From: a virus
Lineage: Duplodnaviria > Caudoviricetes
Reading direction: 5' to 3' (one strand)
DNA length: 64,000 nt
IMG/VR virus record: IMGVR_UViG_3300025875_000011
Location: 12,217 to 76,216 of that record
The notes beneath the pieces are model-generated. The model saw only the letters and a list, made by a program, of their open reading frames with translations, was not told where the DNA came from and ran no database searches. Each line of letters starts with the position of its first letter. Position 1 is the first letter of the stretch. The position numbers were made by a program, and so were the translations under genes. Positions 3,064-50,492 of this stretch are shown here, one piece after another.

Positions 3064-3490
3064 TCGGCTTCTCCTTCGTGGACAGGCCCACCCGCGCGGC
3101 CGGGGAGAACCCGAACTCGTTCCCGAGGACCCGCAGCTGGGCTCCGAAGTCGCGGACGAACTGAACGGCGGGGTTCTTCACGATGTTCCCGTCGCGGCCC
3201 CGCATCACCAAGCCCGCGCTGTTGACGAGCCGGACGGCGTCGCGGTACTTCACGACCGTCACGCAGTACGCGTAGATCATGTCCTCGTCCGCGCCGGCCA
3301 GCATGTGCATGATCCGGAGGTCCTCGACGACCCGGTCCCACACGGCCTGGATCTCGGGGGTGACGTCGGTCGGCGGAAGCGGCTGGCGGTTCGCGGGGAC
3401 GGGCTCGTTCTGGTTGATCCTCGACGGCCGCGACTCCCCGCGCAGGAGCCGCAGGTTCGTCGGGGTCGGGGTCGGTCCGCGCTTACCCAT
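3026..3490 (-). CDS. terS: Terminase small subunit, P27 family
   Basis: MGKRGPTPTPTNLRLLRGES...KNPAVQFVRD...EFGFSPAAR, the P27 signature; start trimmed to ATG 3490. Confidence 0.93.
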   Translation of the reverse strand: MGKRGPTPTPTNLRLLRGESRPSRINQNEPVPANRQPLPPTDVTPEIQAVWDRVVEDLRIMHMLAGADEDMIYAYCVTVVKYRDAVRLVNSAGLVMRGRDGNIVKNPAVQFVRDFGAQLRVLGNEFGFSPAARVGLSTKEKPSAGAGAERYLSG

Positions 3491-3577
3491 GAAGGGTCTC
3501 CTCTCGATGAGGTGCGGGGCACCCTCCCGCTCCCGGACTACCCGCCTTGGATACCGGCCCGATCTTGCGTGTGGTGT

Positions 3578-3661
3578 GGGGGTTGGGACGTACTTCCGCA
3601 CGCTCACCCATTGCGCCTCGGGGTACGCGCGGGCGTCGTACGCAGTGGTGTCCCAACCCCC
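3578..3661. promoter_or_regulatory. Intergenic stem-loop between folE and terS
   Basis: GGGGGTTGGGAC (3578-3589) pairs perfectly with GTCCCAACCCCC (3650-3661), enclosing 60 nt. Confidence 0.45.
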
Positions 3662-3677: not shown

Positions 3678-4598
3678 TCAGCCGTGGTGGAGGGCCAGGA
3701 ACTCCGCTCGGAGGTCGCGCTCCAGGAACCGGCCGACGAGGTGGGAGGTGACCATCTCGCCGGGGGTCCGGACCCCGCGCATCTCCATGCACAGGTGCGA
3801 CCCGGCCCCGATCACTCCGACGTGGTCGGTCTCGGCCACCTGAGCGATCCGGTCACCGATGTTCGCCACCAGCCGCTCTTGCAGCTGGAGGCGGTGGGCG
3901 TACAGGTGAGCGATCCGGGCCAGCTTCGACAGGCCGACGACCTTGTTCTCGGTGAGGTAGCCCATCGTCAGGGTCGTCTTGAACGGGACCAGGTGGTGCT
4001 CGCACAGCGACCAGACGGTGACGCCGCGGACGACGACGAGTTGGTTGGCCGTGACCCCGTCGAACACCGTCGAGATCGTGCCCGGGTTGTAGTCGACGAA
4101 CTCGGCCCACATCCGAGCCCACCTCGCGGGGGTGTCGCGCAGACCCTCACGGTCGGGGTCCTCACCGATGGCCACGAGGAGCTCTCGCCCGATCCGCTCG
4201 AGCGCGCCGGTGTCGACCGTGCCGACCTGATCGAGGAACGCCTCCCAACCTTCGACCGCTGCTGCGGGCATGGCGGGGCGCACCCCCATTGTCTTCACGG
4301 GCTCGCCGATTTCCAAGTCCGGGGTGTCCTCGTCGGCGTGTCGCGGGGGTGGGATGTCCCCCGGCTGTGGTGGGCGACAGACCCAGCAGCGCGCGCCGGG
4401 GACCGCGCGGTGAGGTTCGTCCCCGAGCGCGTTACAGGCCACGTCGAGGGTGTTGTGCTCGCCGTGGCCTGCGAGTTCGCGCTCGGACGACGCGATGAAC
4501 GGGTCGCGCGAGACCGGGGCCGCGTCGGGGTACGGGTCGACCCCGGCCATCCACTTCGGGGTGAGGTCGTCGGGGGTGATCTCAGGCTCAGGTGCCAC
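3678..4598 (-). CDS. folE: GTP cyclohydrolase I with an N-terminal extension
   Basis: GEDPDREGLRDTPAR, SLCEHHLVPF, GLSKLARI, RLQLQERL and HLCMEMRGV motifs; about 120 extra N-terminal residues, so the start is uncertain. Confidence 0.95.
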   Translation of the reverse strand: MAPEPEITPDDLTPKWMAGVDPYPDAAPVSRDPFIASSERELAGHGEHNTLDVACNALGDEPHRAVPGARCWVCRPPQPGDIPPPRHADEDTPDLEIGEPVKTMGVRPAMPAAAVEGWEAFLDQVGTVDTGALERIGRELLVAIGEDPDREGLRDTPARWARMWAEFVDYNPGTISTVFDGVTANQLVVVRGVTVWSLCEHHLVPFKTTLTMGYLTENKVVGLSKLARIAHLYAHRLQLQERLVANIGDRIAQVAETDHVGVIGAGSHLCMEMRGVRTPGEMVTSHLVGRFLERDLRAEFLALHHG

Positions 4599-6508: not shown

Positions 6509-6933
6509 TGGACCTCTCCCGTGTCGGGGTCGACCCGGGGCTCGCGTCGGAGCATCACGATGTGGCGCTCGTAGATGTTCGTCGGCCGGGGGTCGCCGTC
6601 GATGAGGACGTGGAGCAGGCCGTCGGTGTCGGCCGCCCCGGAGTACACCGCGACCAGCTGCCCCGTGACCCACAGGCCGTTCGCGCCGGCGTCGAGCAGG
6701 ATCCCCACCCGGTCTCCGACCGCCGCGACCTCCTCGACCTCCTCGACCTCGGTGGTGTCGTCCAGGCCCAAGTGGGCGAGGAGCTCGTCGGCGATCTTCT
6801 TGGCCCGGTCGGAGTCGAACACGCCCTGGTGCTCGGTCATCCTCGACCAGCACACCGAGGCCGCCCCAATGGCTTCCTGTACAGCGGTCCTCGGGGACTG
6901 ATCGGTGAACCCCATCACTTCGTCTGGCTTCAC
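6505..6933 (-). CDS. Hypothetical protein
   Basis: VKPDEVMGFTDQ...; coupled to the dpdA stop (GTGA); phage-like codon usage. Confidence 0.65.
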   Translation of the reverse strand: MKPDEVMGFTDQSPRTAVQEAIGAASVCWSRMTEHQGVFDSDRAKKIADELLAHLGLDDTTEVEEVEEVAAVGDRVGILLDAGANGLWVTGQLVAVYSGAADTDGLLHVLIDGDPRPTNIYERHIVMLRREPRVDPDTGEVQ

Positions 6934-7826
6934 AGCCGGTGTCCTTCCAGGTAGGTCGTCTCGATCGCCTTCGACGCGAGACGGAACTGGCGGATCACGG
7001 TGTCCGCCACGTAGGAGTGGAGCCCGGGCCCGGACCGGTTGGTCTCGTCGCCCGGGATCATGATCGGACCATGACGCAGCCGGAGCCAATGCTCGGCCCG
7101 CTTGTGGGCGACCGCGGCCAGCATCACCGCGTACTGGCGCTCGTACTTTGCCGGGTCAAGGAAGATCAGCGGGTCTGCGCCGTGCTCACGGATCAGGGCC
7201 CGGTTGTCGATGATCGTCGAGTGGTCGCGGAGCGTGGCCGTCACCCACCGGCCGTTCTTGAACATCTTCAACTGCCCGTAGCGGAACCCCTGGCCCCACG
7301 ACGACGAGTCCACCGAGTAGAACGGGAAGTCGCGCAGGGCCTGCCACACGTTCAGGCCGAACCCGTGGAACACCGCGCGGTCCCCCGCGATCCGGAACGC
7401 CTTCGCCAGCCACGGCTCGAGGATCTTCCACGAGTTCCCGAGCAGCTTGCCGAGCGCGATGTACGTGTGGCCGGCCTCGATGTACTTCTCCAGCCACTCC
7501 CACGGCTCCCCGGTGTGGAACACGGGCAGGACCTTCAACCCGTGGACCTCCTCCAAGATCCGCTGGTTCCGCCAGGTGTTCGCCGGCGCGCCGATCACGT
7601 CGAGGTTCGACACCACGTCGAGGTGGCGTCCCCACCGCTTCACCCATGCCGCGTACTCGTCCACACGCAGATCCACACCCTGTGTACGAGCCGAGTGAGC
7701 GCCGGAGTCCGCGAAGACGAGCGGCTTCTGGCCGGTGACCGCGCCGACGACCTCGTCCATGTCGTGGTCCTTGAAGTACCAGTACGAGCACAGCATCTTG
7801 AACCGGCCGTCGATCGGCACGCTCAC
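6930..7826 (-). CDS. dpdA: DNA deazaguanine transglycosylase (TGT-family DpdA)
   Basis: FADSGAHS, NLDVIG, PVFHTGE, IALG, FHGFG and SVDSSSW motifs of phage DpdA/TGT; clustered with folE/queD/queE; start trimmed to GTG 7826. Confidence 0.88.
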   Translation of the reverse strand: MSVPIDGRFKMLCSYWYFKDHDMDEVVGAVTGQKPLVFADSGAHSARTQGVDLRVDEYAAWVKRWGRHLDVVSNLDVIGAPANTWRNQRILEEVHGLKVLPVFHTGEPWEWLEKYIEAGHTYIALGKLLGNSWKILEPWLAKAFRIAGDRAVFHGFGLNVWQALRDFPFYSVDSSSWGQGFRYGQLKMFKNGRWVTATLRDHSTIIDNRALIREHGADPLIFLDPAKYERQYAVMLAAVAHKRAEHWLRLRHGPIMIPGDETNRSGPGLHSYVADTVIRQFRLASKAIETTYLEGHRL

Positions 7827-8020
7827 CGCGACGCCCCCAGGCACGGGTTCGGACCGTCCGCGGGGCACGGGACGGCGGCCGGGTGCGCGAGGTGGCCGTA
7901 CTCGACGTCGGCCGACTGGCACCGGTAGAGCCCCGGGCGGCCTTCACGCGTCAGGTGGACCCACCCGTCGTGGCCGTCGGTGATCACCCCGACGCCACAG
8001 TGGACGCACGAGTCAGCCAT
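7823..8020 (-). CDS. Hypothetical small Cys/His-rich protein
   Basis: MADSCVHCG...; overlaps the dpdA start. Confidence 0.6.
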   Translation of the reverse strand: MADSCVHCGVGVITDGHDGWVHLTREGRPGLYRCQSADVEYGHLAHPAAVPCPADGPNPCLGASR

Positions 8021-12475: not shown

Positions 12476-12811
12476 GTGACCACCACTGCCTACAGGGCCG
12501 ACGAGTGGGATCGCTTCAACGCGATGCCCGCGCCGGCCGAGGTGTTCATCATGACGTGCCCCGAGGGCCACCAGTCCGAGTGGAGCCACCGTGAGTGGCA
12601 CATGCTCGACACCGGTGCCTGTCCTCGTGAGTGCCCGGGTCGGATCGACTTCGCCCACGCCCGTCGCCACGTCGACTGCCCGTGTGACGAGGAGGTCCTA
12701 ACCGCGCCTGGAGATCTCGATACCGCGCCTGCGGGAGAGACCCCTACCGCGCCTGCACTTCGGAATCCGCGGGCCGTCCGTCGCTTCCCCACCTTCATCC
12801 CGAGGGCCTAA
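12476..12811 (+). CDS. Hypothetical Cys/His-rich protein (111 aa)
   Basis: CCACCACCACAGGAGGAACC-GTG; CPEGH, CPxxCP and CPC motifs. Confidence 0.72.
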   Translation: MTTTAYRADEWDRFNAMPAPAEVFIMTCPEGHQSEWSHREWHMLDTGACPRECPGRIDFAHARRHVDCPCDEEVLTAPGDLDTAPAGETPTAPALRNPRAVRRFPTFIPRA

Positions 12812-12919
12812 CCGCGCCTCGAGATCGAAACCGCGCCTGGACCGTCGAAGGTGAGGCCACACCGCGCCTGGTGTGACCGCGCCTGGTCTGTCCAGACCAC
12901 CACCACCACAGGAGGAACC

Positions 12920-13255
12920 ATGAAGATCACCCGTGCCGCTGCCGCGCTCGCGCTCGCCGCTGCCCTCGTCGTGGGGGTACCGGCCACCGCGTCCGAGGCC
13001 GCGTCCAGGCCGACGAGGGCCGACCGTCACGCGATGGTCGAGGCCAACCACGCCTGTACCGCCGCGCCTGACGAGTCGACGTACGAGAACTGCGTCGTCG
13101 GTGCCTTCGTCCAGGCCCGCCACCGCTACATCGACGAACGGTTCTACGTCGCCGACTACTCGGACGCCGACCCCACCGTCTACTCCGAGCCCGAGGGAAC
13201 CGGTCCTGTGCCGTGTACCTGCGTCCGCCTCACCCGCGCCTCGAAGAAGATCTGA
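12920..13255 (+). CDS. Secreted hypothetical protein (111 aa)
   Basis: MKITRAAAALALAAALVVGVPATASEA signal peptide; consensus RBS motif. Confidence 0.78.
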   Translation: MKITRAAAALALAAALVVGVPATASEAASRPTRADRHAMVEANHACTAAPDESTYENCVVGAFVQARHRYIDERFYVADYSDADPTVYSEPEGTGPVPCTCVRLTRASKKI

Positions 13256-13344
13256 CCGCGCCTGAGCTGCCTACCGTCCCCCAGGGCCACACCGTCCCTG
13301 GAGGGCCAGGACTGCTCAGTCCACCGCCACCCACAGGAGGAACC

Positions 13345-13680
13345 ATGACCGCTGCCCACATCTACGGGGCGTGTGGCGTCGAGGACTGCCGGGACTGTCT
13401 CCCGACTTTCTCCGACGACAACCAGGTGTTGACCGAGGCCGAGACCTACGTCTCGGGCGAGCTCATCACGGGCGTCACGGCGGCCGGCTCCCACTTCACC
13501 GTGGACAGCCGCGTCGACCGGTACCACCGCGCCTCCAGCCACGTCATCACCGGCTACACCCCGAACGGGCGCTCCGACTACTACATGCGGAACGTGTCCT
13601 ACCGCGACGCCATGATGAACCTCGCGAACGCCGAGCGTGCCGGGTGGACGAACCTGGCCCTTGGGATCGAGGGGTTCTGA
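13345..13680 (+). CDS. Hypothetical protein (111 aa)
   Basis: CCACAGGAGGAACC-ATG; CGVEDCRDC motif. Confidence 0.75.
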   Translation: MTAAHIYGACGVEDCRDCLPTFSDDNQVLTEAETYVSGELITGVTAAGSHFTVDSRVDRYHRASSHVITGYTPNGRSDYYMRNVSYRDAMMNLANAERAGWTNLALGIEGF

Positions 13681-13765
13681 ACCGCGCCTGAGTGATCAGG
13701 GTGAGGCCCCCGTACGCGGGGACCGCGCCTGGACTACTCAGTCCGCCACCACCACAGGAGGAACC

Positions 13766-14815: not shown

Positions 14816-14846
14816 TCGGTCCCCCACAACTGTTGTGGGGGACCGA
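14816..14846. terminator. Perfect 14-bp hairpin
   Basis: TCGGTCCCCCACAA-CTG-TTGTGGGGGACCGA between two + strand genes. Confidence 0.6.
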
Positions 14847-14916
14847 GCCGCTATGTCATACTTGTTCTAGCGGGACCTCAGACAGGGGCCCGCGCCACCA
14901 CCAGGAGGATCAGATC

Positions 14917-15987
14917 ATGGCTCACGCACTCGAAGTCAACCCGGTCACCGGCCAGGCCTCGGCCATCTTCGGTCACGCGACCAGCGCCTGGCACCGCCTC
15001 GGGACGACGGTCCCGGGAGGGTTCACGGCCGAGGAGGGGATGAAGACGGCCGGCCTCGCCGGGTGGAACGTCCGGAAGCTGCCGATCTACCACATGGGCG
15101 ACGACCCCGACAAGGGTGAGGCCCACGAGATCGACGGCCAGTACGTCACCGTCCGCGACAACCCGTTCGTCGAGGGCCAGGTCGACGCCCTCGGGATCGT
15201 CGGCGAGATCTACCACCCGTTCCAGAACGAGCAGGGAGCCGAGTTCCTCGACCTGCTCGCCGGTGAGGCCGGGGCCCACTGGGACACGATGGGCTCGATC
15301 CGGGGAGGGACCCAGACGTTCATGTCGATGTCGCTGCCCGCGCACCTGATGGTCGGCGGGGTCGACCGCCAGGACCTCAACCTGACGATCCTCAACTCCC
15401 ACGACGGCTCGCTCAAGGTGACCCCGATGGTCACCGCCGTCCGGGTCGTCTGCGCGAACACGTTCGACTGGGCCATCCGGAACAACGTGGCCTTCGCGTC
15501 GCTGCGCCACACGTCGTCGACGTCGGCCAAGGTCGCTGAGGTCCGCGAGGCCCTCGGGGTCACGTTCTCGGCCAAGGACGAGTTCGCTGCGGAGGCCGAG
15601 CGGATGATCCAGGAGACCATGACCAAGGGTCAGTTCGAGAAGAAGATGTTCGGCCCGAGCGGTGTCTACGCCGCCATCGCTCCGAAGGTCACGGCCGGTC
15701 AGTCCGCGAAGAACAACTGGGCCGCGACCCGCGACGGCCTGTTCGACTACTTCCTCGGCGACATCGAGGGGGCCGAGTCGAAGATCGGGAAGACGGCGTG
15801 GGGTGCCTTCCAGGCCGTGACGTGGATGGAGGACCACAAGCGGAACATCCGGTCGGCCGAGACGGACGCCGAGGGTCGTCAGCGCGACCGGGCCGAGCGG
15901 GCCGTCAGCGGGACCGGGGTCAACCTCAAGAACCGGGCCTGGTCCGCCCTCCGCGTCCCGGAGAAGGGCCAGCTCGTCACCGTCTGA
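14917..15987 (+). CDS. DUF932 / TIGR03299 phage-plasmid-like protein
   Basis: SAWHRLGT, VRDNP...LGIVGEIYHPFQNEQ, GSIRGG, NSHDGS, VRVVCANT, TAWGAFQAVT; start trimmed to ATG 14917. Confidence 0.9.
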   Translation: MAHALEVNPVTGQASAIFGHATSAWHRLGTTVPGGFTAEEGMKTAGLAGWNVRKLPIYHMGDDPDKGEAHEIDGQYVTVRDNPFVEGQVDALGIVGEIYHPFQNEQGAEFLDLLAGEAGAHWDTMGSIRGGTQTFMSMSLPAHLMVGGVDRQDLNLTILNSHDGSLKVTPMVTAVRVVCANTFDWAIRNNVAFASLRHTSSTSAKVAEVREALGVTFSAKDEFAAEAERMIQETMTKGQFEKKMFGPSGVYAAIAPKVTAGQSAKNNWAATRDGLFDYFLGDIEGAESKIGKTAWGAFQAVTWMEDHKRNIRSAETDAEGRQRDRAERAVSGTGVNLKNRAWSALRVPEKGQLVTV

Positions 15988-20870: not shown

Positions 20871-21425
20871 CTATCCGGACGCAGCAGCGCGGAGTTTGGC
20901 CAGGGCCCGGTGGTGAGCGACCCGGACAGCGTTCTCCTTCATCCCGAGCCGCTCCCCCACCTCGCTGGCGCTCAGTCCGTGGGCTCGGAGCATCACGATC
21001 CGACCGGCCTGCTCGGGGAGCGCCGCGACGAGGACCAGCGCGGCGTCGAGATCTTGGCGGACTTCTAACAGCGCCTCCGGAGACGGATCGTGGCTCGTCT
21101 GGTCGGGCAGCTGGTCGACGACGTGGAACGGGGTCCGCGAGTAGGCCCGTTGCGCGTCCCGGACCTTGTTCGAGGCGATCGCGTAGACGAACGCGCCGAA
21201 CGGGGAGCCGCGGTCGTCCCAGTGGGGGAGCGCGGCTGCGACCGCGACGCACACCTCCTGGGTCACGTCCTCTGCCGCTTCTCCCCCGCCGGCGTACGTC
21301 GCCAGCCGGGTCCGGGCGTAGCGGTGGACGGCCCTCCTCACAGCGCCCAGCAGGTCGTCGAGGGCGGCGGTGTCTCCGTGTTGGGCGTCGTGGACGAGGG
21401 AGCCGTCGTCCATGCTGGCGGTCAT
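20871..21425 (-). CDS. ECF sigma-70 factor (actinobacterial SigD/ShbA-like)
   Basis: Region 2 AEDVTQEVCVAV...PFGAFVYAIASNKVRDAQR; region 4 IVMLR...GLSASEVGERLGMKENAVRVAHHRALAKLR. Confidence 0.92.
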   Translation of the reverse strand: MTASMDDGSLVHDAQHGDTAALDDLLGAVRRAVHRYARTRLATYAGGGEAAEDVTQEVCVAVAAALPHWDDRGSPFGAFVYAIASNKVRDAQRAYSRTPFHVVDQLPDQTSHDPSPEALLEVRQDLDAALVLVAALPEQAGRIVMLRAHGLSASEVGERLGMKENAVRVAHHRALAKLRAAASG

Positions 21426-23577: not shown

Positions 23578-23925
23578 TTAGCGGCGGCGAGGGAAGTCCG
23601 GGGTGACCGGACCGATCCCGCCGATGGTCGGGTACGACGGCCTCGGGGTGAGGGGCATGGAGAACCCGCACGGGGCCGACAGGTCGATCTCTTCGGGGTC
23701 GTCGAGGGTGGCCCGGTAGTCGCGGTTCCCGACACACACCGCCACCCACCCGCTCAACGCGACACCAACGCCGTAGGTCACGGGGCCCGGGCCGGGGACG
23801 ACGACCTCCACCTCGTACGGGTGGAGACGGCCGGCCTGGCACGCGGGACACAGCGGCTGGCCGGTGTCGTACCCGCCGTTCAGGGGACGCAGCGAGTCCA
23901 GCGGTACGGCTCTGGTCCCGTTCAC
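23578..23925 (-). CDS. Hypothetical Zn-finger protein
   Basis: LCPACQAGRL...WVAVC...PCGF. Confidence 0.65.
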   Translation of the reverse strand: MNGTRAVPLDSLRPLNGGYDTGQPLCPACQAGRLHPYEVEVVVPGPGPVTYGVGVALSGWVAVCVGNRDYRATLDDPEEIDLSAPCGFSMPLTPRPSYPTIGGIGPVTPDFPRRR

Positions 23926-24176
23926 TGTCCTGCCTCCCTCACCAGTCGCCGCACGTTGTCCGCTCCGATCCCCTGACCCTTCCAGTCCCCCGGTCCCCAC
24001 CCCAGGTGGGCGAGCTCGGCCTGGACCGCGCTCGCGGCCTTCGGAGCGGACCCCATGCGCTGAGCGAGCCGGATCATCGCGGGGTCTCGAACCGTCTCGA
24101 GTTCGGCTTGCGCCCGTAGGTACCGGTCCATCGCCTGCGCGGCGATCATCGCGTCCCTCTGGGCGTCGTCATCCAC
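23922..24176 (-). CDS. Hypothetical protein
   Basis: ORF track; GTGA coupling. Confidence 0.65.
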   Translation of the reverse strand: MDDDAQRDAMIAAQAMDRYLRAQAELETVRDPAMIRLAQRMGSAPKAASAVQAELAHLGWGPGDWKGQGIGADNVRRLVREAGQ

Positions 24177-24179
24177 GCC

Positions 24180-24497
24180 TCACAACCCTAGGGCGTTGAA
24201 CAGTCCGAAGCCCCCGGTGAGGATGAAGACGACGAGGAGCACGGCCAGCTCGGACACGATGAACATCTGGCCCCAGATGATCCACAGCGGCTTCTCGTCG
24301 AAACTCATCGGCCGGGGAGACACGGGGAGCCCGCTCGGGTCGTACACCTGGACCTGCCCGCCGACGACGGCCTGGGACTGGCCGTACTGGTTGATCATCC
24401 CGTCGGGCCGGTGGGCGTACTTCAACGTGACCCTGGTGGCCACCCACATCGCGGCCAGTGTTCCCAGGCCGAGGAGGACCTGATAGAGCGTGTTCAT
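24180..24497 (-). CDS. Two-TM membrane protein (spread-protein-like position)
   Basis: MNTLYQVLLGLGTLAAMWVAT...IIWGQMFIVSELAVLLVVFILTGGFGLFNALGL; ATGA-coupled to the hydrolase gene. Confidence 0.75.
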   Translation of the reverse strand: MNTLYQVLLGLGTLAAMWVATRVTLKYAHRPDGMINQYGQSQAVVGGQVQVYDPSGLPVSPRPMSFDEKPLWIIWGQMFIVSELAVLLVVFILTGGFGLFNALGL

Positions 24498-26731
24498 CGT
24501 GCTCCTGTCAGCTGGGCCGTCTCGGGCCACAGCGTGGGGTGGGGGGCCGGGTCGTTGTTGTACCCCGACAGTCCGTTGCCGTGGTTCGGCCACGACCCCG
24601 TGATCTGCGGTGCGCTCTTGGTGCCCTCGTCAAGGAGAGACTCGCCGTGGACGTGGGACCCGGACCCGACGCTCGACCGTCCGGGGACGTTGCGGGCCCA
24701 AGCCGCGAACCCGGCCTGACGCATCGCCGTCTCCTTCGAGATGCAGTCGTCAGCGCCCGAGCAGGCGACGTCGACAGCACCCGGGTACTTGTGGGAGGTG
24801 CCCGACGCTCCGATGTGGCCGCCGCCGTACCCGCCTTGCATGAGGACCAGGTCCTTCCCGGTCTTCGACTCGACGAGGCGGATCTGGGCGGCGGTGATCG
24901 CGGACACGAACTTGCCGTCCATCGTCACCTTCTGCGACGGGACCGAGGGCGGGGCCACGACGCCGACCCCGATGGCCGCCTGGGCCGACGACGTCGCGAT
25001 CTCGTGCCACACCGCTTGACGGGCGGTGTGGTCGGACCCGAACTTGCCGAGGTCGTGGACCTCGTCGGGCATCCGGCCGGTGGTGGCGATGACGTCGATG
25101 GTCCGCTTGCGCAGCGTCGGGGACAGGTCGGGCATGTGGAGACCGACCTGGGCGTACATCCCGTTCGGGTCGCCGTCGAAGTTCATGTCGCCCATGACGA
25201 TGACCGGGCCGAGGGGGGCGTGCTGTCGGACGACCTCCTGCAACTTCTTCCACCCCCGGATGGCGACCGCGATCCGGTGGGGCTCGTCGGGGTTGAGGAC
25301 GCCGTGGCTCTGAATGTGGGGCAGCTGGTGCTGGTTGACGTACGTCTCGACCTGGCCGGTCCGGATACCGTCGGGTCCCTTCTTGGCCAGGACCATGACG
25401 ACGAGGTAGCGGTCGCCCTGGTCGGGACCCTCGACGTTGTCGCCGCGCTCGTAGTAGCCGATGGTGTCGTCGGCCACGAGGTCGTAGGTCTTGCGGTCGT
25501 AGAACATCTCGTGGCTGGTGTGCTTCCCGACGAACGCGAAGTCCTGGCCGTCCATAGCCGCGTTGACGGCCTCCTTCCGGTCGGGGTCGGACAACTCCTG
25601 GGTGGCGATCACCTTCGCCTGCTTGGTGAACCCGACGAGGGCCTTCACCACCCGCTGGTCGTTGCCGTGCTGCTCGCGGGGGTAGACGCTGCCGTGGTAG
25701 CCGTTCCAGGTGATGACGGAGGTCCCCGAGATCGGAGCCCCCGCCCCCGCCGTCGGCGAGCAGCCGGGCGTCGGGCCCGGGGTCGTCGGGACGGTCGGAG
25801 CCGGGGCCGGGGCCTCCTCGCCGGGGCCCACGCCGGACGTGTCGCCCGGGCCGGTCCCGTTCGTCTTCGGCTCGAGGAGCTTCCCGAGGCCCTTCCCGAC
25901 CTGCGGGGCCAGGCCGCCGACCTCGCTGCCCGGGACCGGGCTCCCACCGTCGCCGCTGGGCGGGGCCGTGGAGATCGTGGCGTAGCGGGCGTACTGGCCG
26001 ACGTGGGACTGGGCCGTCTTGTACGTCGACCAGTCACCGGCCCACGTTCCCCCGCGCCCCTTCCACAGCGCGTAGGCGTACTTCGCGTTGACGTACGGGT
26101 CGGTCCGGTCGCCCAGCTTCAAGTGGTCAGCGTTCGGGCCGGAGATCTGCCAGTAGCCGACGTGGTTGCTCGAGTTGGCGATGTCGTGGTCGTAGCCCGA
26201 CTCGTACTTGGCGATCGACACACCGAGCGGGATCTGGCCGAGCCACTTCGCGTCGGTCGGGGCCGCCGCGCGGAGCGCAGCCGCGGCCAGGTCGGGGCCG
26301 TCCTCGCCGGCCGTCCCGCTGGTCCCAGCGGGCGACAGCGGAGCGTTGGGGCTGGAGGGGAGGGTGACGGCTGGCTGGCAGCACGACGCGAGCGCAGCGG
26401 CCCGACGCTTCTCGGTCTCGACCTGCCACCCCGTCTGCCAGGTGCTGTCCTCGCCGGTCTTCACGTTGGAGTCGAAGTTGTCGAACCAGCCCTCGATCGT
26501 CCCGATCCCGCCCATGACGTTGCGGTAGATGTCGAGCGCCGACGGGGCGTCACCCTCGGTGAAGTTGTGGACGACCTTCCCGAAGGAGCCGACCTTCTCC
26601 CCGACGGAGAACGCGGCCGGGGTCCCGACCTCCCCGCCGCACGTCACCTCGACCTCGTCCATGTTGAAGGCGACGATCCCGACGAGGAGCACGCCGACGG
26701 TCAGCGCGGCGGTCTTGCGTCCGAGGCTCAC
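24494..26731 (-). CDS. Membrane-anchored multidomain cell-wall hydrolase: SLT transglycosylase + EEP domain + Zn-peptidase (M15-like)
   Basis: N-terminal TM; SLT: SIAKYESG...VGYWQIS...DPYVNAKYA...DWSTY; EEP: ITWN...ATQE...GDMN...SDH; C-terminus QGGY...SGTSHKYPGAVD...GFAAWAR...HVH, like actinophage endolysin peptidase domains. Confidence 0.8.
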   Translation of the reverse strand: MSLGRKTAALTVGVLLVGIVAFNMDEVEVTCGGEVGTPAAFSVGEKVGSFGKVVHNFTEGDAPSALDIYRNVMGGIGTIEGWFDNFDSNVKTGEDSTWQTGWQVETEKRRAAALASCCQPAVTLPSSPNAPLSPAGTSGTAGEDGPDLAAAALRAAAPTDAKWLGQIPLGVSIAKYESGYDHDIANSSNHVGYWQISGPNADHLKLGDRTDPYVNAKYAYALWKGRGGTWAGDWSTYKTAQSHVGQYARYATISTAPPSGDGGSPVPGSEVGGLAPQVGKGLGKLLEPKTNGTGPGDTSGVGPGEEAPAPAPTVPTTPGPTPGCSPTAGAGAPISGTSVITWNGYHGSVYPREQHGNDQRVVKALVGFTKQAKVIATQELSDPDRKEAVNAAMDGQDFAFVGKHTSHEMFYDRKTYDLVADDTIGYYERGDNVEGPDQGDRYLVVMVLAKKGPDGIRTGQVETYVNQHQLPHIQSHGVLNPDEPHRIAVAIRGWKKLQEVVRQHAPLGPVIVMGDMNFDGDPNGMYAQVGLHMPDLSPTLRKRTIDVIATTGRMPDEVHDLGKFGSDHTARQAVWHEIATSSAQAAIGVGVVAPPSVPSQKVTMDGKFVSAITAAQIRLVESKTGKDLVLMQGGYGGGHIGASGTSHKYPGAVDVACSGADDCISKETAMRQAGFAAWARNVPGRSSVGSGSHVHGESLLDEGTKSAPQITGSWPNHGNGLSGYNNDPAPHPTLWPETAQLTGAR

Positions 26732-27033
26732 CGGCGGAACACCCGCATCACGGCAGCGACCAGGAGGAGGACCAGCCCGATGAGGCCGATGACACCTCCC
26801 GCGTTGGGGAGGCCCGCGGTGGCGAACTTTCCGCCGCCCATGAGCACCCCGACACCGGTCGCGGCGACCCAGGTGGAGCGCCGGTAGGTCTTCTTCGGCG
26901 GGGTGGCGGGGTCAGCGTCTCGCGCGTCCTGGGCCTGGAGGTCGCGGCCGCGGCGGGACACGGTGGACTCCCGGACGTGGACGGTCCTGCCGTTGACGGT
27001 GCGGACGTGAGCTCGCCGGGTGAAGGTGCTCAT
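26728..27033 (-). CDS. Basic N-terminus, two-TM membrane protein
   Basis: TWVAATGVGVLMGGG...VIGLIGLVLLLVAAVMRVFRR; coupled to neighbours on both sides. Confidence 0.7.
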   Translation of the reverse strand: MSTFTRRAHVRTVNGRTVHVRESTVSRRGRDLQAQDARDADPATPPKKTYRRSTWVAATGVGVLMGGGKFATAGLPNAGGVIGLIGLVLLLVAAVMRVFRR

Positions 27034-29087
27034 TCGCTGTCTCCGAAGCCTGGGATGTGGGTGAGGTGGTCGCCGCCGACGAGGACCGGTTCACGTCGGG
27101 GGACCGGCTTGCGCTTCCGGGTCCGCGGCTTGGCCTTCGGCTTCGGCTCTTCGACGACGTCGACGACCTCGCCCTCGAGCACGACGGGAGCCGTCGCGTG
27201 GGGGTAGCCGCGGTACGCGTGGAGGATGTCGATGGGGGCCTGGTCCTCGAACAGGTCGGGCTCGACCGGCTCGGGCGTCTTGCGCTTCCGCTTCGGCAGA
27301 TCGAGGGGGGTGATCTCCCCGTCGCGGTCGAACTTCGGGCCCCGGTAGGTGAGGCGGGTCAGGTGGGTGGCCCGGTTGTTCCCCGCGCCGGCGATGTTGA
27401 ACATCGGCTGGAGGGCGTGGATCTCCTTCGACTCCCAGGCGAGCGCGGTCGGCTCGCCTGGGAAGACGCCCGACTCGGTCCAACGGACGTGGGTGGCCCA
27501 CCAGCGGCAGTCGACGTTGGAGCAGCCGGGGAACGGGCACCAGCCCTTCCACACGTCGTCGCGGCGGTGCTCGCCGTAGCGGCGGTCCCGCTTGTTCGTC
27601 TCCCCCGAGTAGATGTGGATGGCCCGTCCCTTCGGGGTGACGCCGAACGCGCGGTAGCCGTAGTGGGGACGCAGACCGTTGCGGAGTTCCCGGGCCAGGT
27701 CGCGGGTCATCATGTTCTCGGGCAGCTCGCCGGTCGTCATGAGGTGGCGGACGTGCTGCTTCCCGACGTCGGCGGTGCGGAACTTCATCCGCTCCCCCTC
27801 CTCGGTGACGTAGTAGCCGACGCCCCGCATCCCGAAAGGGATCTGGGAGCAGGGGACGCCTTCGTTCTCCCCGATTCCGAGGACAGCCTTCGTGTCCTCA
27901 GCCGACGTCTGACGCATCGAGGCCCGCAGCTGGAAAGCCTTTCGGATACCGCCGATCTCCTGGACGGTGGCGACCTGGACGCTCATCCACACAAAGTCGG
28001 CGGTGCTCCGACCCTGAGACATGTAGACGCCCATGTCGGTCTTCGCCATTCCGGCCTGGAATAGCGGGGCCACGTCGAGGCCTTCGTCGATGATCGTCAA
28101 GACGCCGGGAAAGTCGGGGTTAGGCCCGCCGATGTCGTTGAGGTCCATCGCCTCCTTTTCGGCCAGGATCTCTTGACGTTCGTGGAGTTCGGCGCGCATG
28201 GCCTTGAAGTGTTCGGTGGCCTCCTCCAGCGTGGTGAAGTAGCCGCGGATGCGGATGTTCCCGTGGCCGAAGGACTTGCCGACCCACCGCTGGAACCAGC
28301 GCAACTCGGTGCGCTTCGGGTCGACGATCCACACGTCGGTCGGCGTCTCGTCGCGGACGAGGTCGAACCACAGGTTCCAGGTGAACTTGCTCTTACCGGC
28401 CCCCGACGCGGCACCGACGAGGATGTTGAAGCCGTACGGGACCTGGGCCACCTTCCCGTCGTTCTGCCAGCCGAAGGAGATCGACGCCTTCCCCGACGGG
28501 GGGAGGTCGAGGATCGACCGGGTCGCCTCGAGCGGGCTCTTGTCCCAGAACGTCAACCACCCAGCGCCCTTCCCGGACGGGCTGATCGAGATCTCCTCGC
28601 ACTTCATCGTCCCGGGGAGGACGGTGACGGCGTCAGCGGAGATGCGGGCCATGTCGCCACCGAGCGAGCCGGGACTGACGTAGGCCCGGACCTGCCCGGT
28701 CGGCGTCAACTTCTTGCGGAGGAGCTTCGGCTCGACCCCGTTCCACGACACCTTCTGGCCGGCCGTGTAGATGGCCCACCGGGCGTCGATGTCGCCGAAC
28801 TTCTTCCCGCTGGTCAGGAAGTTGAACGGAAGCCGCCACCACGGGACCTCAACGCCTTCGTCGACGAGCTCGGCGCGACGGTCGATGATCTTCGTGACCA
28901 CCAGCCACAGCAGGACGGCGGCGATGGTGAGGAGGACGACCTTCCCGCCGCTGAAGATGTCGCCGGTGAGGTCCCAGCACAGCCACCAGTAGAGGCCGAG
29001 GACGGTCAGCGCGACCGGGGGTGGGAAGTCCATCCACCGACGGTTCGGCGTGCCGATCCAGTTCCACAGATCCTTCATGGCCTTCAC
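27030..29087 (-). CDS. FtsK/SpoIIIE (TraB-like) DNA translocase fused to a C-terminal GIY-YIG-like nuclease domain
   Basis: Two N-terminal TMs; Walker A GAASGAGKS; WIVDPKRTEL; Walker B TIIDEG; QGRS...MSVQ...IRKAFQLR; C-terminus YGYRAF...HIYSGET..R..R..EH...WW...E..EI....PMFN. Confidence 0.85.
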   Translation of the reverse strand: MKAMKDLWNWIGTPNRRWMDFPPPVALTVLGLYWWLCWDLTGDIFSGGKVVLLTIAAVLLWLVVTKIIDRRAELVDEGVEVPWWRLPFNFLTSGKKFGDIDARWAIYTAGQKVSWNGVEPKLLRKKLTPTGQVRAYVSPGSLGGDMARISADAVTVLPGTMKCEEISISPSGKGAGWLTFWDKSPLEATRSILDLPPSGKASISFGWQNDGKVAQVPYGFNILVGAASGAGKSKFTWNLWFDLVRDETPTDVWIVDPKRTELRWFQRWVGKSFGHGNIRIRGYFTTLEEATEHFKAMRAELHERQEILAEKEAMDLNDIGGPNPDFPGVLTIIDEGLDVAPLFQAGMAKTDMGVYMSQGRSTADFVWMSVQVATVQEIGGIRKAFQLRASMRQTSAEDTKAVLGIGENEGVPCSQIPFGMRGVGYYVTEEGERMKFRTADVGKQHVRHLMTTGELPENMMTRDLARELRNGLRPHYGYRAFGVTPKGRAIHIYSGETNKRDRRYGEHRRDDVWKGWCPFPGCSNVDCRWWATHVRWTESGVFPGEPTALAWESKEIHALQPMFNIAGAGNNRATHLTRLTYRGPKFDRDGEITPLDLPKRKRKTPEPVEPDLFEDQAPIDILHAYRGYPHATAPVVLEGEVVDVVEEPKPKAKPRTRKRKPVPRREPVLVGGDHLTHIPGFGDSE

Positions 29088-29170
29088 GGTGCGGGGGTCC
29101 TTCCGGGGGGTGGTGGTGGTAGACGAGGACGTCGGTACCCAGTGCAGGTACCGACGCCCTCAGGGGTGGC

Positions 29171-29401
29171 TCAGCCCTTCGACGGAGCCGAAGCGATGTC
29201 GAACGCCTTGTCGAACTTGTCGCCACCGCCGGAGAGGGAACCGGCGAGGACGCCGGCTCCCTGCTCACCGGTGTCGCGGACGGCGTTCGTCATGTTGGCC
29301 GCGGCCTGGACGTCTCGCATCTGCGCGATCCCTCCGATGGCGAACGACAGGATGATGAACGTGCCGAGGATCAGTCGGCTCAGGGATCCGCTCTTGAACA
29401 T
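29171..29401 (-). CDS. Small single-TM protein heading the FtsK operon
   Basis: MFKSGSLSRLILGTFIILSFAIGGIAQM... Confidence 0.65.
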   Translation of the reverse strand: MFKSGSLSRLILGTFIILSFAIGGIAQMRDVQAAANMTNAVRDTGEQGAGVLAGSLSGGGDKFDKAFDIASAPSKG

Positions 29402-29502
29402 GAGGTGGGTGCCTCTCGGATGGGGGTCGGGGGGAGCGGTTGGCCTGACCCCCCGGAAGGGGGTCAGTGCTTGGTCCTGCCGCAGGTCACACTCGCTGGA
29501 CC

Positions 29503-30091
29503 GGGGAGTCCGTCACTCCCCCGACGGGGTGGGACGTCTCGGTGCTGGAGTCCTGCTGGACGAGGGGACAGGGGCCTCGCGTTCCTTCCCTTGGTGGTGG
29601 TGTCGGGGCGGGGGTTCGGACCCTCCCCTGGCTGAGCAGCCCTCAGGATAGCGTGAACCGGTTCCACGGTGGTAGGCGGCGGCCCAGCGGGGCCTACGCC
29701 TACCACTCCAGCTGCCCTATCCACCGGTCGGGAACGGGCTGCTGTTGACGCCTGCTTGACATGGCGAATAGGATCGGCGTCGCACCACTCGCTCCGCTCC
29801 CCGCGCGGCGCCGGACCCCCCCACCTCGTCCGGCCAGGCCCCGCCTGCCGCCCTCCCCCAACCTGTTGCTCGGGCTGGCTGTCGAGGTACGGCTCAGGCC
29901 CCGCAGTGCCGCCTTCTCCCACCGTGGAACCGGTTCCCGCGATCCTGTCGGTCTGCCCAGCCCGGGTCGGGTCCTCTCCCCCGCCCCTCCCCCACCACCT
30001 CGGGAGAGGAACGCTCGTCCCCTGTCCCCGCGTCCGCAGGACTCCCGCACCTTGACGTCCCACCCCGGCAGGGGAGGGACACAGACTCCCC
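29503..30091. repeat. Long imperfect inverted repeat (two ~180-bp arms around a ~225-bp spacer)
   Basis: Arm 29503-29680 is the reverse complement of 29908-30091. Shared blocks: GGGGTGGGACGTC, GGAGTCCTGC, GGGGACAGGGG, GCGTTCCT, GGGGCGGGGG, GAACCGGTTCCACGGTGG. Confidence 0.9.
29745..29774 (+). promoter_or_regulatory. SigA/HrdB-type promoter facing the right arm of the inverted repeat
   Basis: TTGACG-N18-TAGGAT; no + strand gene follows. Confidence 0.5.
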
Positions 30092-31012: not shown

Positions 31013-31272
31013 AGGCCACCTCCGCGACAGTTCGCGGTACACGTCCCGCCGTCGAGGATGTCGCACCACGGGAGGTGGAGGGCGAGCTCGGCCTCACGCT
31101 TTACCCAAGCGCGGCCAGCGAGCGGCGCGAACACCGTCTCGCCGGGAGTCACGTTGGCCAGGTCGTCCCGGATGAGGTTCAGGTAGGCCGGCCGAGCCGG
31201 GTCCTGCTCGGGGTAGAGCGGGACCACGTTCACGTCCAGGGGGGCGGGGTCGAGGTCCATCCAGTCGGCCAT
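31009..31272 (-). CDS. Hypothetical protein
   Basis: MADWMDLDP...CDILDGGTCTANC; TGATG coupling. Confidence 0.6.
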   Translation of the reverse strand: MADWMDLDPAPLDVNVVPLYPEQDPARPAYLNLIRDDLANVTPGETVFAPLAGRAWVKREAELALHLPWCDILDGGTCTANCRGGGL

Positions 31273-32351
31273 CAGCGCCACACCTTCGACTCGCGGTGGA
31301 CGAGGTCGAACCAGCGCATCGTCTGCTCGACTTCGGCCAGCGACTTGATCGTGACGATGGCGTTGGTGTTGTAGGAGCTGCCTCCCAAGTTCGCGGAGCC
31401 GGTGATCACCTCGTTGACCTTCTTCGACCGGATCAGGATCACCTTGGCATGGTCCTTCACCTCGGCGAACGACGTGTCGCGGGTGTCGATGTCGTATTTC
31501 CGGATCGCCTTCAACACGTCGGGCTCGGTCTGCTCGGACGCGATGACGAGGCGGACGTAGCAGCCCTGCCGCTTCTTCTTCCCGGCCTCGATCGCCACTT
31601 CCTTGCGGGAGTCGTTCCAGATCATCATCACGACCTCGATGGTCGGGCGGACTTTCTTCCCGTGGAGGGTGTAGGCGTCGCAGTTGACGGCCGCGACTTC
31701 CTTGGCCCGGTTGTCCGGCCCGCCCGGGAGATAGTCGATTTTCCAGCTGCCGTCCTTCGACTTGATCGACTTCGGCGACTTCACCTTGCGGTCGTAGCCG
31801 AGCGCCTTCACCCAGGCGGTGGTGGTGGTGTAGATCTTCCGGTCGTACGTCGAGGACCAGGTGTTCCACTTCACCTCGCCGGTGTTGGTGACGTTCCCGG
31901 AGGCGAGGAGCGAGCGGCCGGTCGTCTCGTTCCCGAGGAACTTGAGGTGCTGGACGCCCTTCCCCTTCTTCGCGGACGCGGGGGACCCGTCGGCCTTGAT
32001 CGCCCACGAGCTGGCCTTCGGGTTCGACCCGAGGCGGTGGACGAGGTCGTCCATCGCGTTGTAGTGGTCGCCCTTCCACGACAGGACGCGGACGTTGACG
32101 TGGCGGGCGATGGCGCGGACGAGCGCGGAGTGGACCTCCCAGTTCGACAGGCCGTACGTGGCGAGGGTGAGGTCGTCGCCGGCCTTGGCCCGGTCGATCT
32201 CCAGGCGCATCTGGTGGTTGAAGGAGTCGGCGGTGGTCTTGGTCCCACCGGCCGAGGAGGGGATGTTGAAGGAGATCGCCTGAGCGGGAATCGCCGGGGC
32301 GACGAGGAGAGCGGTGGTGGCCAGGCCGGCCAGGACGGGGCGGAGCTTCAT
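31272..32351 (-). CDS. Secreted phospholipase D-superfamily protein
   Basis: Signal peptide MKLRPVLAGLATTALLVAPAIPAQA; two HxK motifs, QHLKF...LASGNVT and DHAKV...ITGSANL. Confidence 0.82.
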   Translation of the reverse strand: MKLRPVLAGLATTALLVAPAIPAQAISFNIPSSAGGTKTTADSFNHQMRLEIDRAKAGDDLTLATYGLSNWEVHSALVRAIARHVNVRVLSWKGDHYNAMDDLVHRLGSNPKASSWAIKADGSPASAKKGKGVQHLKFLGNETTGRSLLASGNVTNTGEVKWNTWSSTYDRKIYTTTTAWVKALGYDRKVKSPKSIKSKDGSWKIDYLPGGPDNRAKEVAAVNCDAYTLHGKKVRPTIEVVMMIWNDSRKEVAIEAGKKKRQGCYVRLVIASEQTEPDVLKAIRKYDIDTRDTSFAEVKDHAKVILIRSKKVNEVITGSANLGGSSYNTNAIVTIKSLAEVEQTMRWFDLVHRESKVWR

Positions 32352-32401
32352 GGGGTGGGTCCTTCTGTGGTGGTGGTGCGGGTGGTGGGTTGGTGGAGGC
32401 G

Positions 32402-33142
32402 TCAGAACGGGTCTCCTACTTGGGTGGTGGTGGGCTCGGGGTCGACCTTCTTGACCCACGGGAGGCGGACGGACGTGAACCCTCGGTCGATGCTGGCCCG
32501 GAGGTATCCGGGCTCGACCAGGCCGATCGAGACCATGACCGCGAGGAGCGCCCACAGCTGGTCGCCCGTCATGGGGGTGTCGAGGTAGAGGTGGCCGTGG
32601 CCTTCGGTCGTCGACGGCACATAGGTGACGGGGACGTCGAGGTCGATCACCGGGGCGTGGAGGGCCGTGGCGAGGTGCTCGGGGTCGATCGTCCCGTCCT
32701 TGCGGGTCTTGGGCCAGAACTCCTCCTGGATCAGCGAGGTGACGACGTCGGCCCGGGCGACACCGGTCGGGGCCACGCTCCCCTCGTAGGACGACCAGTC
32801 GGCCACGGTCCCTGTGACCCGCTTCACGGTGCCGGGGACCACCTTCGCGTCGTGCTCCGCGAGCACAGAGGCCGGGTAGTCCTCGCGGGGCATGATCCCG
32901 GGGCTGGTGGTCGCGTCTTGGAACTGCTCGGCCGTGACCTCGAGAGCCAGGTTCGTGAGGGTCGCGCTGACGGCCTCGGCCATCCGGTCCTCGGGGTCCT
33001 CGTCGGTCCGGGAGTCGAGGAACCGCACGAACGCGCCGAGCACGCCCGCGGCGGCGGCGTCGACCTCAGCTGCCGTGGTCGTCCGGGGGAGGGTCTCCTT
33101 GATCGCCGCGGCCACCTCCTCGCGGAGCGTGAGCGTGGTCAT
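32402..33142 (-). CDS. Hypothetical protein with AEP/prim-pol-like C-terminal motifs
   Basis: HAPVIDLD (DxD) and STTEGHGHLY (GxHhY). Confidence 0.5.
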   Translation of the reverse strand: MTTLTLREEVAAAIKETLPRTTTAAEVDAAAAGVLGAFVRFLDSRTDEDPEDRMAEAVSATLTNLALEVTAEQFQDATTSPGIMPREDYPASVLAEHDAKVVPGTVKRVTGTVADWSSYEGSVAPTGVARADVVTSLIQEEFWPKTRKDGTIDPEHLATALHAPVIDLDVPVTYVPSTTEGHGHLYLDTPMTGDQLWALLAVMVSIGLVEPGYLRASIDRGFTSVRLPWVKKVDPEPTTTQVGDPF

Positions 33143-49778: not shown

Positions 49779-50492
49779 TCAGACCAGCCGGACCGGCCGG
49801 CCGTACAGGTTGAGGGTGGTGTGGCCGAGCTGCCCGACCGAGAACCCGACGATGACCCACGGCTCCCCGTCGATCTCCGCGACGGTGACACCTTCGGGCT
49901 CGTAGCGGCCACCGATCGGGTTCCCCTTCACGTCGCGGGCCACCGCGTCGAGGTCGATCCGCCCGACCTCCACGGTCCCGTCGATGACCTGGAGCCACGC
50001 GTTCTCCCCTGGGTGCCAGGCCGGGTCGGTCTTGATCGACCCACCGTGGAGCCGGACCCACCGGGTCCCGCCGAGGTGAGCGTCTCCCTGGGACCCGTTC
50101 GGGCGGGGGAGCGGACACGACGGCGGGGCCTTCGTCGGCTCGGTCGTGAACTCGGGGCCGAACGTGACCTTCGACCACACGCCGTTGATGCGGGTGACCA
50201 TGTGGCCGTCGGCGTGGTCGGTCCGGTCCCCGTGACCGCCGCCGATGACCGTCCGCGTCTCCACGGCCAGGCCACCGCCCGCCTCGTAGCGGGACAGGAC
50301 CAGGTCGTCGCCGGCGTTCGTCGGCTGGTCGGCCCGGTCGCGTCCCTGGGTCCCGCCCCACCCACCGGCGATCGGGACCCCGTACTGCGGGACGACGTCG
50401 GTGTCAGCGGGGACGAGGTTGACCAGGAACTTCCAGCCCGGGTCAGGCTCCGGGGGCAGGGGGAGCGGGGTCGGGAAACGGGGCGGCCCCAA
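49779..50492 (-). CDS. Hypothetical beta-rich protein (TagC/RBP-like), start unclear
   Basis: GGGHG...YEPEGVT... beta-propeller-like text; overlaps the endolysin 3' end by 50 nt; only a TTG start with poorly spaced SD. Confidence 0.55.
   Translation of the reverse strand: MGPPRFPTPLPLPPEPDPGWKFLVNLVPADTDVVPQYGVPIAGGWGGTQGRDRADQPTNAGDDLVLSRYEAGGGLAVETRTVIGGGHGDRTDHADGHMVTRINGVWSKVTFGPEFTTEPTKAPPSCPLPRPNGSQGDAHLGGTRWVRLHGGSIKTDPAWHPGENAWLQVIDGTVEVGRIDLDAVARDVKGNPIGGRYEPEGVTVAEIDGEPWVIVGFSVGQLGHTTLNLYGRPVRLV

Follow-up and report, generated by a model that had tools for sequence, protein, structure and literature searches.

The viral DNA analysed here, referred to as the window, comprises 64,000 nucleotides from the genome of a tailed phage, whose host is presumably a high-GC actinobacterium (positions 12217-76216 of the 76.2-kb IMG/VR record IMGVR_UViG_3300025875_000011, which is ~91% complete with a GC content of ~70%). 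Its minus strand carries, at window positions 24180-29401, an operon of five open reading frames (ORFs) in which an FtsK-type motor ATPase with a predicted GIY-YIG nuclease domain is accompanied by a membrane-anchored wall hydrolase. A sequence-only reading had described this operon as five start/stop-coupled genes forming a TraB-type DNA-transfer module inside a phage. All five ORFs exist and display a GC content at third codon positions (GC3) of 0.86-0.95, which is of the coding type for a genome of 70% GC. In order of transcription they encode a 76-aa protein (29171-29401), the 685-aa ATPase (27030-29087), a 101-aa protein (26728-27033), the 745-aa hydrolase (24494-26731) and a 105-aa protein (24180-24497). 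The proposed coupling holds at three junctions, where start and stop codons overlap by 4 nt (ATGA between the ATPase and 101-aa genes, GTGA between the 101-aa and hydrolase genes, ATGA between the hydrolase and last genes), but not between the 76-aa gene and the ATPase, which are separated by an 83-nt spacer. Membrane segments were recovered as described in the 76-aa protein (one), the ATPase (two), the hydrolase (one) and the last protein (two), while the 101-aa protein, to which two had been ascribed, has one clear segment and a doubtful second.

The ATPase is an FtsK/SpoIIIE-type protein of the TraB clade, anchored in the membrane by two N-terminal transmembrane (TM) helices at ~residues 24-68 (28884-29018). 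Hydropathy places these helices at residues 24-42 and 50-68 and the AlphaFold2 (AF2) model at residues 23-41 and 44-76, and basic residues flanking both sides of the pair suggest an N-in/C-in topology. The motor domain (~residues 115-460; 27708-28745) displays the Walker A motif GAASGAGKS (K232) and the Walker B motif IIDE (D334, E335), and residues G231, K232, D334 and E335 are invariant in an alignment of 91 family sequences. The predicted GIY-YIG nuclease domain follows at ~residues 475-570 (27378-27665), with Y478, G495, R503 and E552 invariant and Y493, H507 and N564 at least 90% conserved; by these alignments a putative nuclease with conserved catalytic residues is a family-wide trait. 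Inside this domain the window protein and its close relatives contain a Cys-rich insert, CPFPGCSNVDC (~residues 510-527; 27510-27560), which may bind metal. The protein terminates in a disordered Lys/Arg/Pro-rich tail (27033-27364), in which the predicted local distance difference test score (pLDDT) is below 50 from residue 593 on. The C-terminal end of the tail, HLTHIPGFGDSE (27033-27070), is conserved in four of five close homologues and may be a docking motif.

The assignment to FtsK/SpoIIIE made in the sequence-only reading was right, and is visible by family profile or by fold, not by single-sequence Pfam. As a single sequence, the ATPase gave no Pfam match at 0.01 and no PDB match; it matched the generic phage FtsK-like family phrog_1358 (2e-9) and, weakly, the NCBIfam model of EccCa (1.5e-4; 20.7 bits against a cut-off of 509 bits). 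A profile built from five close homologues retrieved a family of 583 representatives at 50% identity with E<=1e-3, 199 of them at <=1e-10. Against the PDB, the 91-sequence family profile matched the FtsK motor (PDB code 2iuu; 3.9e-26), EccC (PDB code 4nh0; 7.7e-24) and TcpA (2e-15), and its positions 463-543 matched the GIY-YIG domain of UvrC (6.7e-5). Member-by-member Pfam searches found PF01580 (FtsK_SpoIIIE) in 54 and PF01541 (GIY-YIG) in 42 of 75 proteins, and most of the members seemingly lacking a C-terminal GIY-YIG match have the domain as well. The AF2 model of the ATPase (pLDDT of 85) comprises the two TM helices, an α/β motor, a compact GIY-YIG domain and the disordered basic tail. 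Foldseek aligned it with the DNA-bound FtsK motor (PDB code 6t8g; 4e-15 over ~400 columns) and with TcpA (2e-14), and viral FtsK-like models in BFVD align structurally with it at 8e-18 to 3e-14.

Searches for the family in other collections were less productive. With the 91-sequence profile, a word-index search mainly recovered cellular FtsK, and pattern scans, a method too insensitive to show absence, located the family in no GTDB genome and at four IMG/VR loci only. Neither blastn with the 6.2-kb module nor tblastn with the members P0001, P0019 and P0024 gave a motor-domain match in 50,697 phage records, the tblastn matches in deposited phages being confined to free-standing GIY-YIG genes of mycobacteriophages. 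The FtsK-like ATPases annotated in cultured Streptomyces phages such as Mandalore, Naboo and Geonosis are therefore at best remote relatives.

The closest relationship of the motor is to TraB, of which pSVH1 TraB and pIJ101 KilA are experimentally characterised examples. Six TraB references were taken from small actinomycete plasmids or elements resembling the integrative and conjugative elements of actinomycetes (AICEs), namely pMR2, pGRS1, pAmy1, Nonomuraea p2, a Streptosporangium plasmid and M. avium pS2b. Of these, pMR2 carries int-xis-rep and a DUF2637 gene, and two reference plasmids have a GntR regulator beside tra. TcpA of pCW3, EccC of a mycobacterial plasmid and cellular FtsK proteins were added for comparison. 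A hidden Markov model (HMM) of the family motor core scored the six TraB proteins at 118-170 bits over the full length of the model, cellular FtsK proteins mostly at ~80-83 bits, TcpA at 59 bits and the EccC domains D1 and D2 at 31 and 14 bits, and the final 40 HMM positions align to TraB alone. A motor-end extension with the pattern PGVGY...FR.A.V.D is likewise common to the phage family and TraB and is not found in cellular FtsK; this shared segment could bind DNA. The window ATPase and the TraB references each have two hydrophobic N-terminal segments. Among the best tblastn matches of the window ATPase in PLSDB are these same TraB genes from Gordonia, Nocardia and Micromonospora, and the nearest Atlas clusters, taken as a lead only, are FtsK-domain proteins of 454-477 aa from Actinomycetota.

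In a maximum-likelihood tree (IQ-TREE, LG+C20+F+G4 by posterior mean site frequency, 57 rows and 263 columns), the phage family and TraB form a common clade with support of 100/99 (ultrafast bootstrap/SH-like approximate likelihood ratio test), within which TraB is monophyletic (100/93) and the phage family forms its own group (93/90), away from cellular FtsK, TcpA and EccC. Within the small set of references used, the kinship with plasmid and AICE TraB presumed in the sequence-only reading is thus borne out, and TraB ancestry of the motor is supported by both HMM and tree. The family appears to form a sister clade of its own beside TraB, seemingly confined to phages, and does not look like a plasmid tra gene captured recently. 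A role adapted to the phage, which may be other than conjugation, would agree with this position.

The partner hydrolase is anchored by an N-terminal TM helix (residues 3-21) and is predicted to be extracytoplasmic. Its SLT/lysozyme-like domain (~residues 145-250; 25982-26299; pLDDT of 65-88) presents the catalytic Glu in an ES motif (E177, S178), and E177, S178, W194 and Q195 are invariant in eight hydrolase homologues. An endonuclease/exonuclease/phosphatase (EEP) domain follows at ~residues 335-575 (25007-25729) and retains the WN, QE(379), GDMN and GSDH motifs in the alignment. Searched as a single sequence in Pfam, NCBIfam and PDB, the hydrolase gave almost no matches, and profiles were required. 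Domain slices gave 2.2e-5 for SLT and 2.4e-5 for EEP, and the hydrolase profile matched the EEP structure 3g6s (1.9e-10). By Foldseek the EEP fold resembles the nucleic-acid phosphodiesterases Tdp2, CNOT6L and PDE12 (~4e-11). The C-terminal region (24497-24934) carries an SxHxxGxxD...HxH motif, by which alone it is a candidate LAS/M15-type metallopeptidase; it gave no significant family match and AF2 confidence is low there. The AF2 model of the whole protein is poor (pLDDT of 53) and supports the SLT and EEP domains only. SLT and EEP, as first called from the sequence, are therefore confirmed, while the zinc peptidase named beside them is represented by its motif.

In related loci, the C-terminal position of the hydrolase is occupied by M23, VldE, NlpC/CHAP or β-propeller domains, which together with EEP constitute a set of interchangeable add-ons. 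Two relatives (L008:12426-14456 and L021:9081-11228) display matches to a phage receptor-binding β-propeller instead of EEP, one of the two being weak (3.5e-3, below the Pfam cut-off). Such a replacement may point to a wall polymer as the target of the middle domain. A role of the module hydrolase as the endolysin of the phage was rejected, as a separate endolysin adjoining a spanin-like gene is encoded at 50443-51795 and the module hydrolase has a TM anchor and a gene coupled with that of the ATPase. The distinction drawn earlier between module, lysis genes and virion genes stands.

The association of motor and hydrolase is retained in relatives whose ATPases share 22-70% identity. A TM-anchored lysozyme-like hydrolase lies downstream of the ATPase in 10 of the 11 loci with downstream DNA, the contig of the eleventh stopping 540 nt past the ATPase. 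These are the window, L002/L007, L004, L008, L009, L010, L017, L020 and L021, together with L011, in which the two proteins are fused. The hydrolase gene follows the ATPase immediately or past one to three small genes, and its lysozyme-like domain is of the SLT_3, SLT or Phage_lysozyme2 type. The gene order of small TM protein, ATPase and wall hydrolase, previously noticed in the window phage only, is thus kept across divergent relatives. In L011 (10001-12922; P0053), a single 973-aa protein comprises the ATPase, GIY-YIG, a TM helix (~residues 595-617), SLT_3 and VldE. Since the TM helix lies between GIY-YIG and SLT_3, the fusion places motor and nuclease inside and hydrolase outside the membrane, and it argues that ATPase and hydrolase act as one machine. 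Every examined context of the family is phage-like, with tail, holin, endolysin, integrase and repressor genes. A DUF6221 gene occurs within a few genes of the ATPase in L009, L010, L011 and L021 and was not found in the window phage. A 546-aa protein with Ro60/TROVE and vWA domains is encoded a few genes downstream of the module in L011 (14617-16257).

The 76-aa protein (GC3 of 0.86) has an N-terminal hydrophobic helix at residues 10-28 and a Gly/Ala-rich tail, and proteins of similar size and build, 18-59% identical, are encoded directly upstream of the ATPase in L002, L004, L009, L010, L011 and L021. The spacer between this gene and the ATPase contains a hairpin (29125-29161, minus strand; inverted repeat I9) with a perfect 15-bp stem and a 7-nt loop, after which come a CCACCACC run and the ribosome-binding site GGAAGGA before the GTG start of the ATPase. 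No T-run terminator was found at the hairpin, which may be an attenuator or a processing site. The 101-aa protein, whose gene overlaps both neighbours, has a basic N-terminus and a hydrophobic C-terminus, with a strong TM segment at residues 81-99 and a weak Gly-rich segment by hydropathy. A 104-aa gene occupies the same place in L002, and in L004 and L009 there is no gene of this type and the hydrolase follows directly on the ATPase. The ATGA overlap with the hydrolase stop places the start of the last small gene at ATG 24497, not at 24593; from there GC3 is 0.92, and the two TM helices of the 105-aa product correspond to residues 39-57 and 111-129 of the long ORF. An 84-aa ORF (23922-24176; GC3 of 0.82), 3 nt beyond the 105-aa gene, may be an additional gene of the operon; a family search with it gave no match.

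The genome carrying the module is of siphovirus type. It encodes terminase small (TerS; 3026-3607) and large (TerL; 1360-3063) subunits, a portal, a scaffold and a major head protein and, just to the left of the window, a 1448-aa tape measure. Further products are a tail fibre (59660-63616), DnaB, an annealing protein of the Erf-like type and a ParB-like protein. An extracytoplasmic function (ECF)-type sigma factor is encoded at 20871-21425, and replication genes lie at 31-47 kb. A DUF932 protein, of a family frequent on phages and conjugative elements, is encoded at 14833-15987. The closest TerL relatives among deposited phages are those of ~75-kb Mycobacterium phages such as Porky and Bask21 (48% identity). 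Neither a tyrosine or serine recombinase (integrase) nor a plasmid-type Rep was found in the phage record, and, from the lack of an integrase, the window phage is probably virulent. Genes for GTP cyclohydrolase I and a queuine-tRNA-ribosyltransferase-like protein are located at 3678-4598 and 6930-7922, a pair presumably consistent with 7-deazaguanine modification of phage DNA. The two genes suggest that the phage modifies its own DNA in this way, and such modification is relevant to any interpretation in which a phage nuclease must spare phage DNA. A 427-aa phospholipase D (PLD)-like putative nuclease (PLDc_2, DrmC-like) is encoded upstream of the module at 31272-32555, and a PLDc_2 gene likewise adjoins the module in L002.

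The non-coding gap upstream of the operon contains a large imperfect inverted repeat (29512-30080), with arms of ~189 nt at ~29512-29700 and 29891-30080, separated by ~190 nt and 77-87% complementary in four blocks (nested pairs I1-I4). The repeat had been listed with the module from the start and is real, but none comparable lies upstream of the module in L002, L004, L008 or L009 and it has no Rfam match at threshold; as a part of the module it was rejected. Elsewhere in the window the motif ACMGCGCCTS occurs in 17 copies against 1.3 expected, 16 of them on the plus strand and eleven within 1 kb, in a cluster at 12701-13731 with further copies at 14221, 20538, 21068, 23556, 34051 and 36018. 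Flanks of related loci show no enrichment of the motif, and the copies may serve as an array of operators or as a cis site of another kind. TraB clt loci, of which 8-bp repeats are read by a C-terminal domain of TraB, are short direct repeats, a layout that the ACMGCGCCTS repeats resemble; no link between motif and ATPase was found.

Comparison with known systems places the module nearest to TraB-type transfer. TraB forms a hexameric membrane channel for double-stranded DNA (dsDNA), and the small membrane-protein genes of spd operons are translationally coupled (PMC4447253). Spd homologues on actinophages have been reported by Thoma et al., who proposed a role for them in spreading phage DNA (PMC4447253). 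The phage module resembles TraB systems in its FtsK-type motor with two N-terminal membrane segments, in its coupled small membrane-protein genes and in having no accompanying relaxase or VirB4. The absence of these, noted at first sight of the sequence, holds for the 76-kb record, in which the AAA_10/VirB4-type ATPase, Relaxase and TrwC families gave no match. In contrast with TraB, which resides on plasmids and AICEs, the phage family resides on tailed phages, its motor is followed by a GIY-YIG nuclease with no FtsK-gamma-type domain detected, and its module includes an exported muramidase/peptidase partner, of which none is annotated beside the TraB references.

The pairing of a membrane-anchored FtsK-like ATPase with a multi-domain peptidoglycan hydrolase that is likewise membrane-anchored, and in which muramidase and endopeptidase are combined, is also shared with Gram-positive transfer modules belonging to the class of type IV secretion systems (T4SSs), such as pCW3 (TcpA/TcpG), ICEBs1 (ConQ/CwlT) and pIP501 (TraG). 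The plasmid pCW3 encodes TcpA and a glucosaminidase-domain protein, and CwlT and VirB1 are further wall hydrolases of envelope-spanning transfer machines. The fold of TcpA ranks with the best structural matches of the phage ATPase, but the phage motor is closer to TraB and FtsK, has a fused nuclease and is accompanied by a hydrolase with EEP, and no VirB4-type ATPase, VirB6/VirB8-like protein or relaxase was found in the phage. Cellular FtsK/SpoIIIE share the α/β motor fold, the Walker motifs and the N-terminal membrane anchor; in the phage protein no gamma domain, which reads FtsK orienting polar sequences (KOPS), was detected and the long linker is missing, and it differs further in being phage-encoded and fused to a nuclease and in belonging to a separate clade. 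No description of the ATPase-nuclease architecture was found in the searchable literature on FtsK or FtsK-HerA with GIY-YIG and on phage TraB-like proteins. FtsK-like genes of Streptomyces phages already appear, with no function assigned, in genome papers; what is new is a TraB-type translocase with a nuclease, a hydrolase partner and a phage carrier.

The interpretation favoured here, with a probability of about 0.4, is that the products of the operon form a TraB-derived membrane apparatus for moving DNA across the envelope, with virion-independent transfer or spread of phage DNA as its likeliest use. A device of this kind is favoured because the homologues of the motor are dsDNA membrane pores, the motor is membrane-anchored and the hydrolase is tied or fused to it. 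A motor combined with a dedicated wall hydrolase is otherwise typical of envelope-spanning transfer machines. In such an apparatus the motor would form a hexameric pore, as with FtsK and TraB, while the hydrolase, anchored beside the pore, would open the overlying peptidoglycan and the small membrane proteins would aid channel assembly or gating. The GIY-YIG nuclease would make or trim the DNA end threaded through the ring. Replicated phage DNA could then enter a neighbouring cell or hyphal compartment with no virion involved, while virions continue to be produced in the usual way. The broader proposition that widespread actinobacterial tailed phages are phage-conjugative hybrids, which own a second, virion-independent route of spread through a TraB-derived pore, an end-making nuclease and a hydrolase of their own, is possible but doubtful.

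Several observations weigh against virion-independent transfer. As the family branches beside TraB and not within it, its function may have diverged; moreover, the sequences in the tree include neither TraB of Streptomyces nor SpoIIIE/SftA nor FtsK-like proteins from cultured phages. While ancestry and synteny favour a TraB-type system, some of its usual companions were not found. An FtsK_gamma-type, clt-reading domain was detected in none of the 75 family members, which weighs on how the phage's own DNA would be selected. No SpdB-type DUF2637 homologue was found, Pfam gave no GntR match (TraR-type regulator) on the five module proteins and the five nearest genes, and the phage has no detected integrase or Rep. 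A nuclease-like EEP domain outside the cell is awkward next to exported DNA unless its substrate is a wall polymer, and a nuclease mounted on a pump fits DNA destruction equally well as end-making. An apparently virulent phage leaves a short time for transfer, and Mycobacterium smegmatis, the host of the nearest TerL relatives, is not mycelial. Finally, the module of temperate relatives lies between the tail/lysis genes and the integrase/repressor.

This last position would suit superinfection exclusion or defence against entry, prophage-expressed exclusion genes being commonly located near the integrase or repressor. A membrane motor-nuclease would then capture and cut incoming foreign DNA, and the phage's own DNA would be protected by 7-deazaguanine, for which the GTP cyclohydrolase I and queuine-tRNA-ribosyltransferase-like genes are candidates. 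The family-wide conservation of the GIY-YIG catalytic residues and the neighbouring PLD-like, DrmC-like nuclease gene, here and in L002, agree with such a role. Exclusion nevertheless leaves unexplained why an exported muramidase/endopeptidase is coupled or fused to the motor, and protection of a lysogen is improbable in the window phage, which has no integrase. PADLOC returned no convincing match, that to mad8 (1e-3 for the ATPase, 7.5e-10 for P0025) covering the P-loop region only, and assignment to a known defence system was rejected on this ground. Overall, an exclusion function is considered unlikely.

Cutting of DNA by the motor-nuclease could alternatively be directed at the host chromosome, with the pump tracking along and shredding it for nucleotides or shutdown and the hydrolase acting separately on the wall. 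Degradation of host DNA by a GIY-YIG enzyme is known from T4 endonuclease II, and both active sites of the motor-nuclease fusion are intact; phage DNA is probably modified, and the operon lies among early or middle genes, near the sigma factor and the replication region. For shredding in the cytoplasm, however, neither the two TM helices nor a fused hydrolase on the outside would be required, and the motor has its closest relatives among DNA translocases of the envelope, which renders host takeover distinctly improbable. An equally low likelihood is given to handling of phage DNA at septa, cross-walls or spores, in which pump and septal hydrolase would move phage DNA into daughter, prespore or neighbour compartments, a form of carriage and not of horizontal transfer. 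Such handling, already raised as an alternative in the sequence-only reading, draws on the same homology as virion-independent transfer, with which it overlaps mechanistically to the point that the two are inseparable in silico, and septa or hyphal tips are where FtsK, SpoIIIE and TraB all operate (PMC4447253). It assigns no clear role to the nuclease. Type VII-like export, in which the FtsK-like ATPase would secrete the hydrolase or small proteins, is very improbable, as the EccCa and EccC 4nh0 matches are set against a single ATPase domain instead of three, EccC domains that are distant in the tree and score <=31 bits with the core HMM, a hydrolase with its own signal-anchor and a DNA nuclease fused to the motor.

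The motor-hydrolase fusion and the conserved catalytic residues provide clear handles for experiments. To our knowledge, no conjugation system for dsDNA other than TraB-type transfer has been described, and plasmids and AICEs have been its carriers until now. A large sister family on phages suggests either capsid-free movement of DNA between cells or re-use of a TraB motor for new DNA processing at the membrane. Re-use of the motor would define a new class of phage membrane machine. Should the nuclease make the end that is threaded through the ring, it would supply a missing piece of TraB-type transfer, namely how that end is made. If transfer proves true, it would change the view of phage spread, of receptor-based resistance and of gene flow in actinobacteria.

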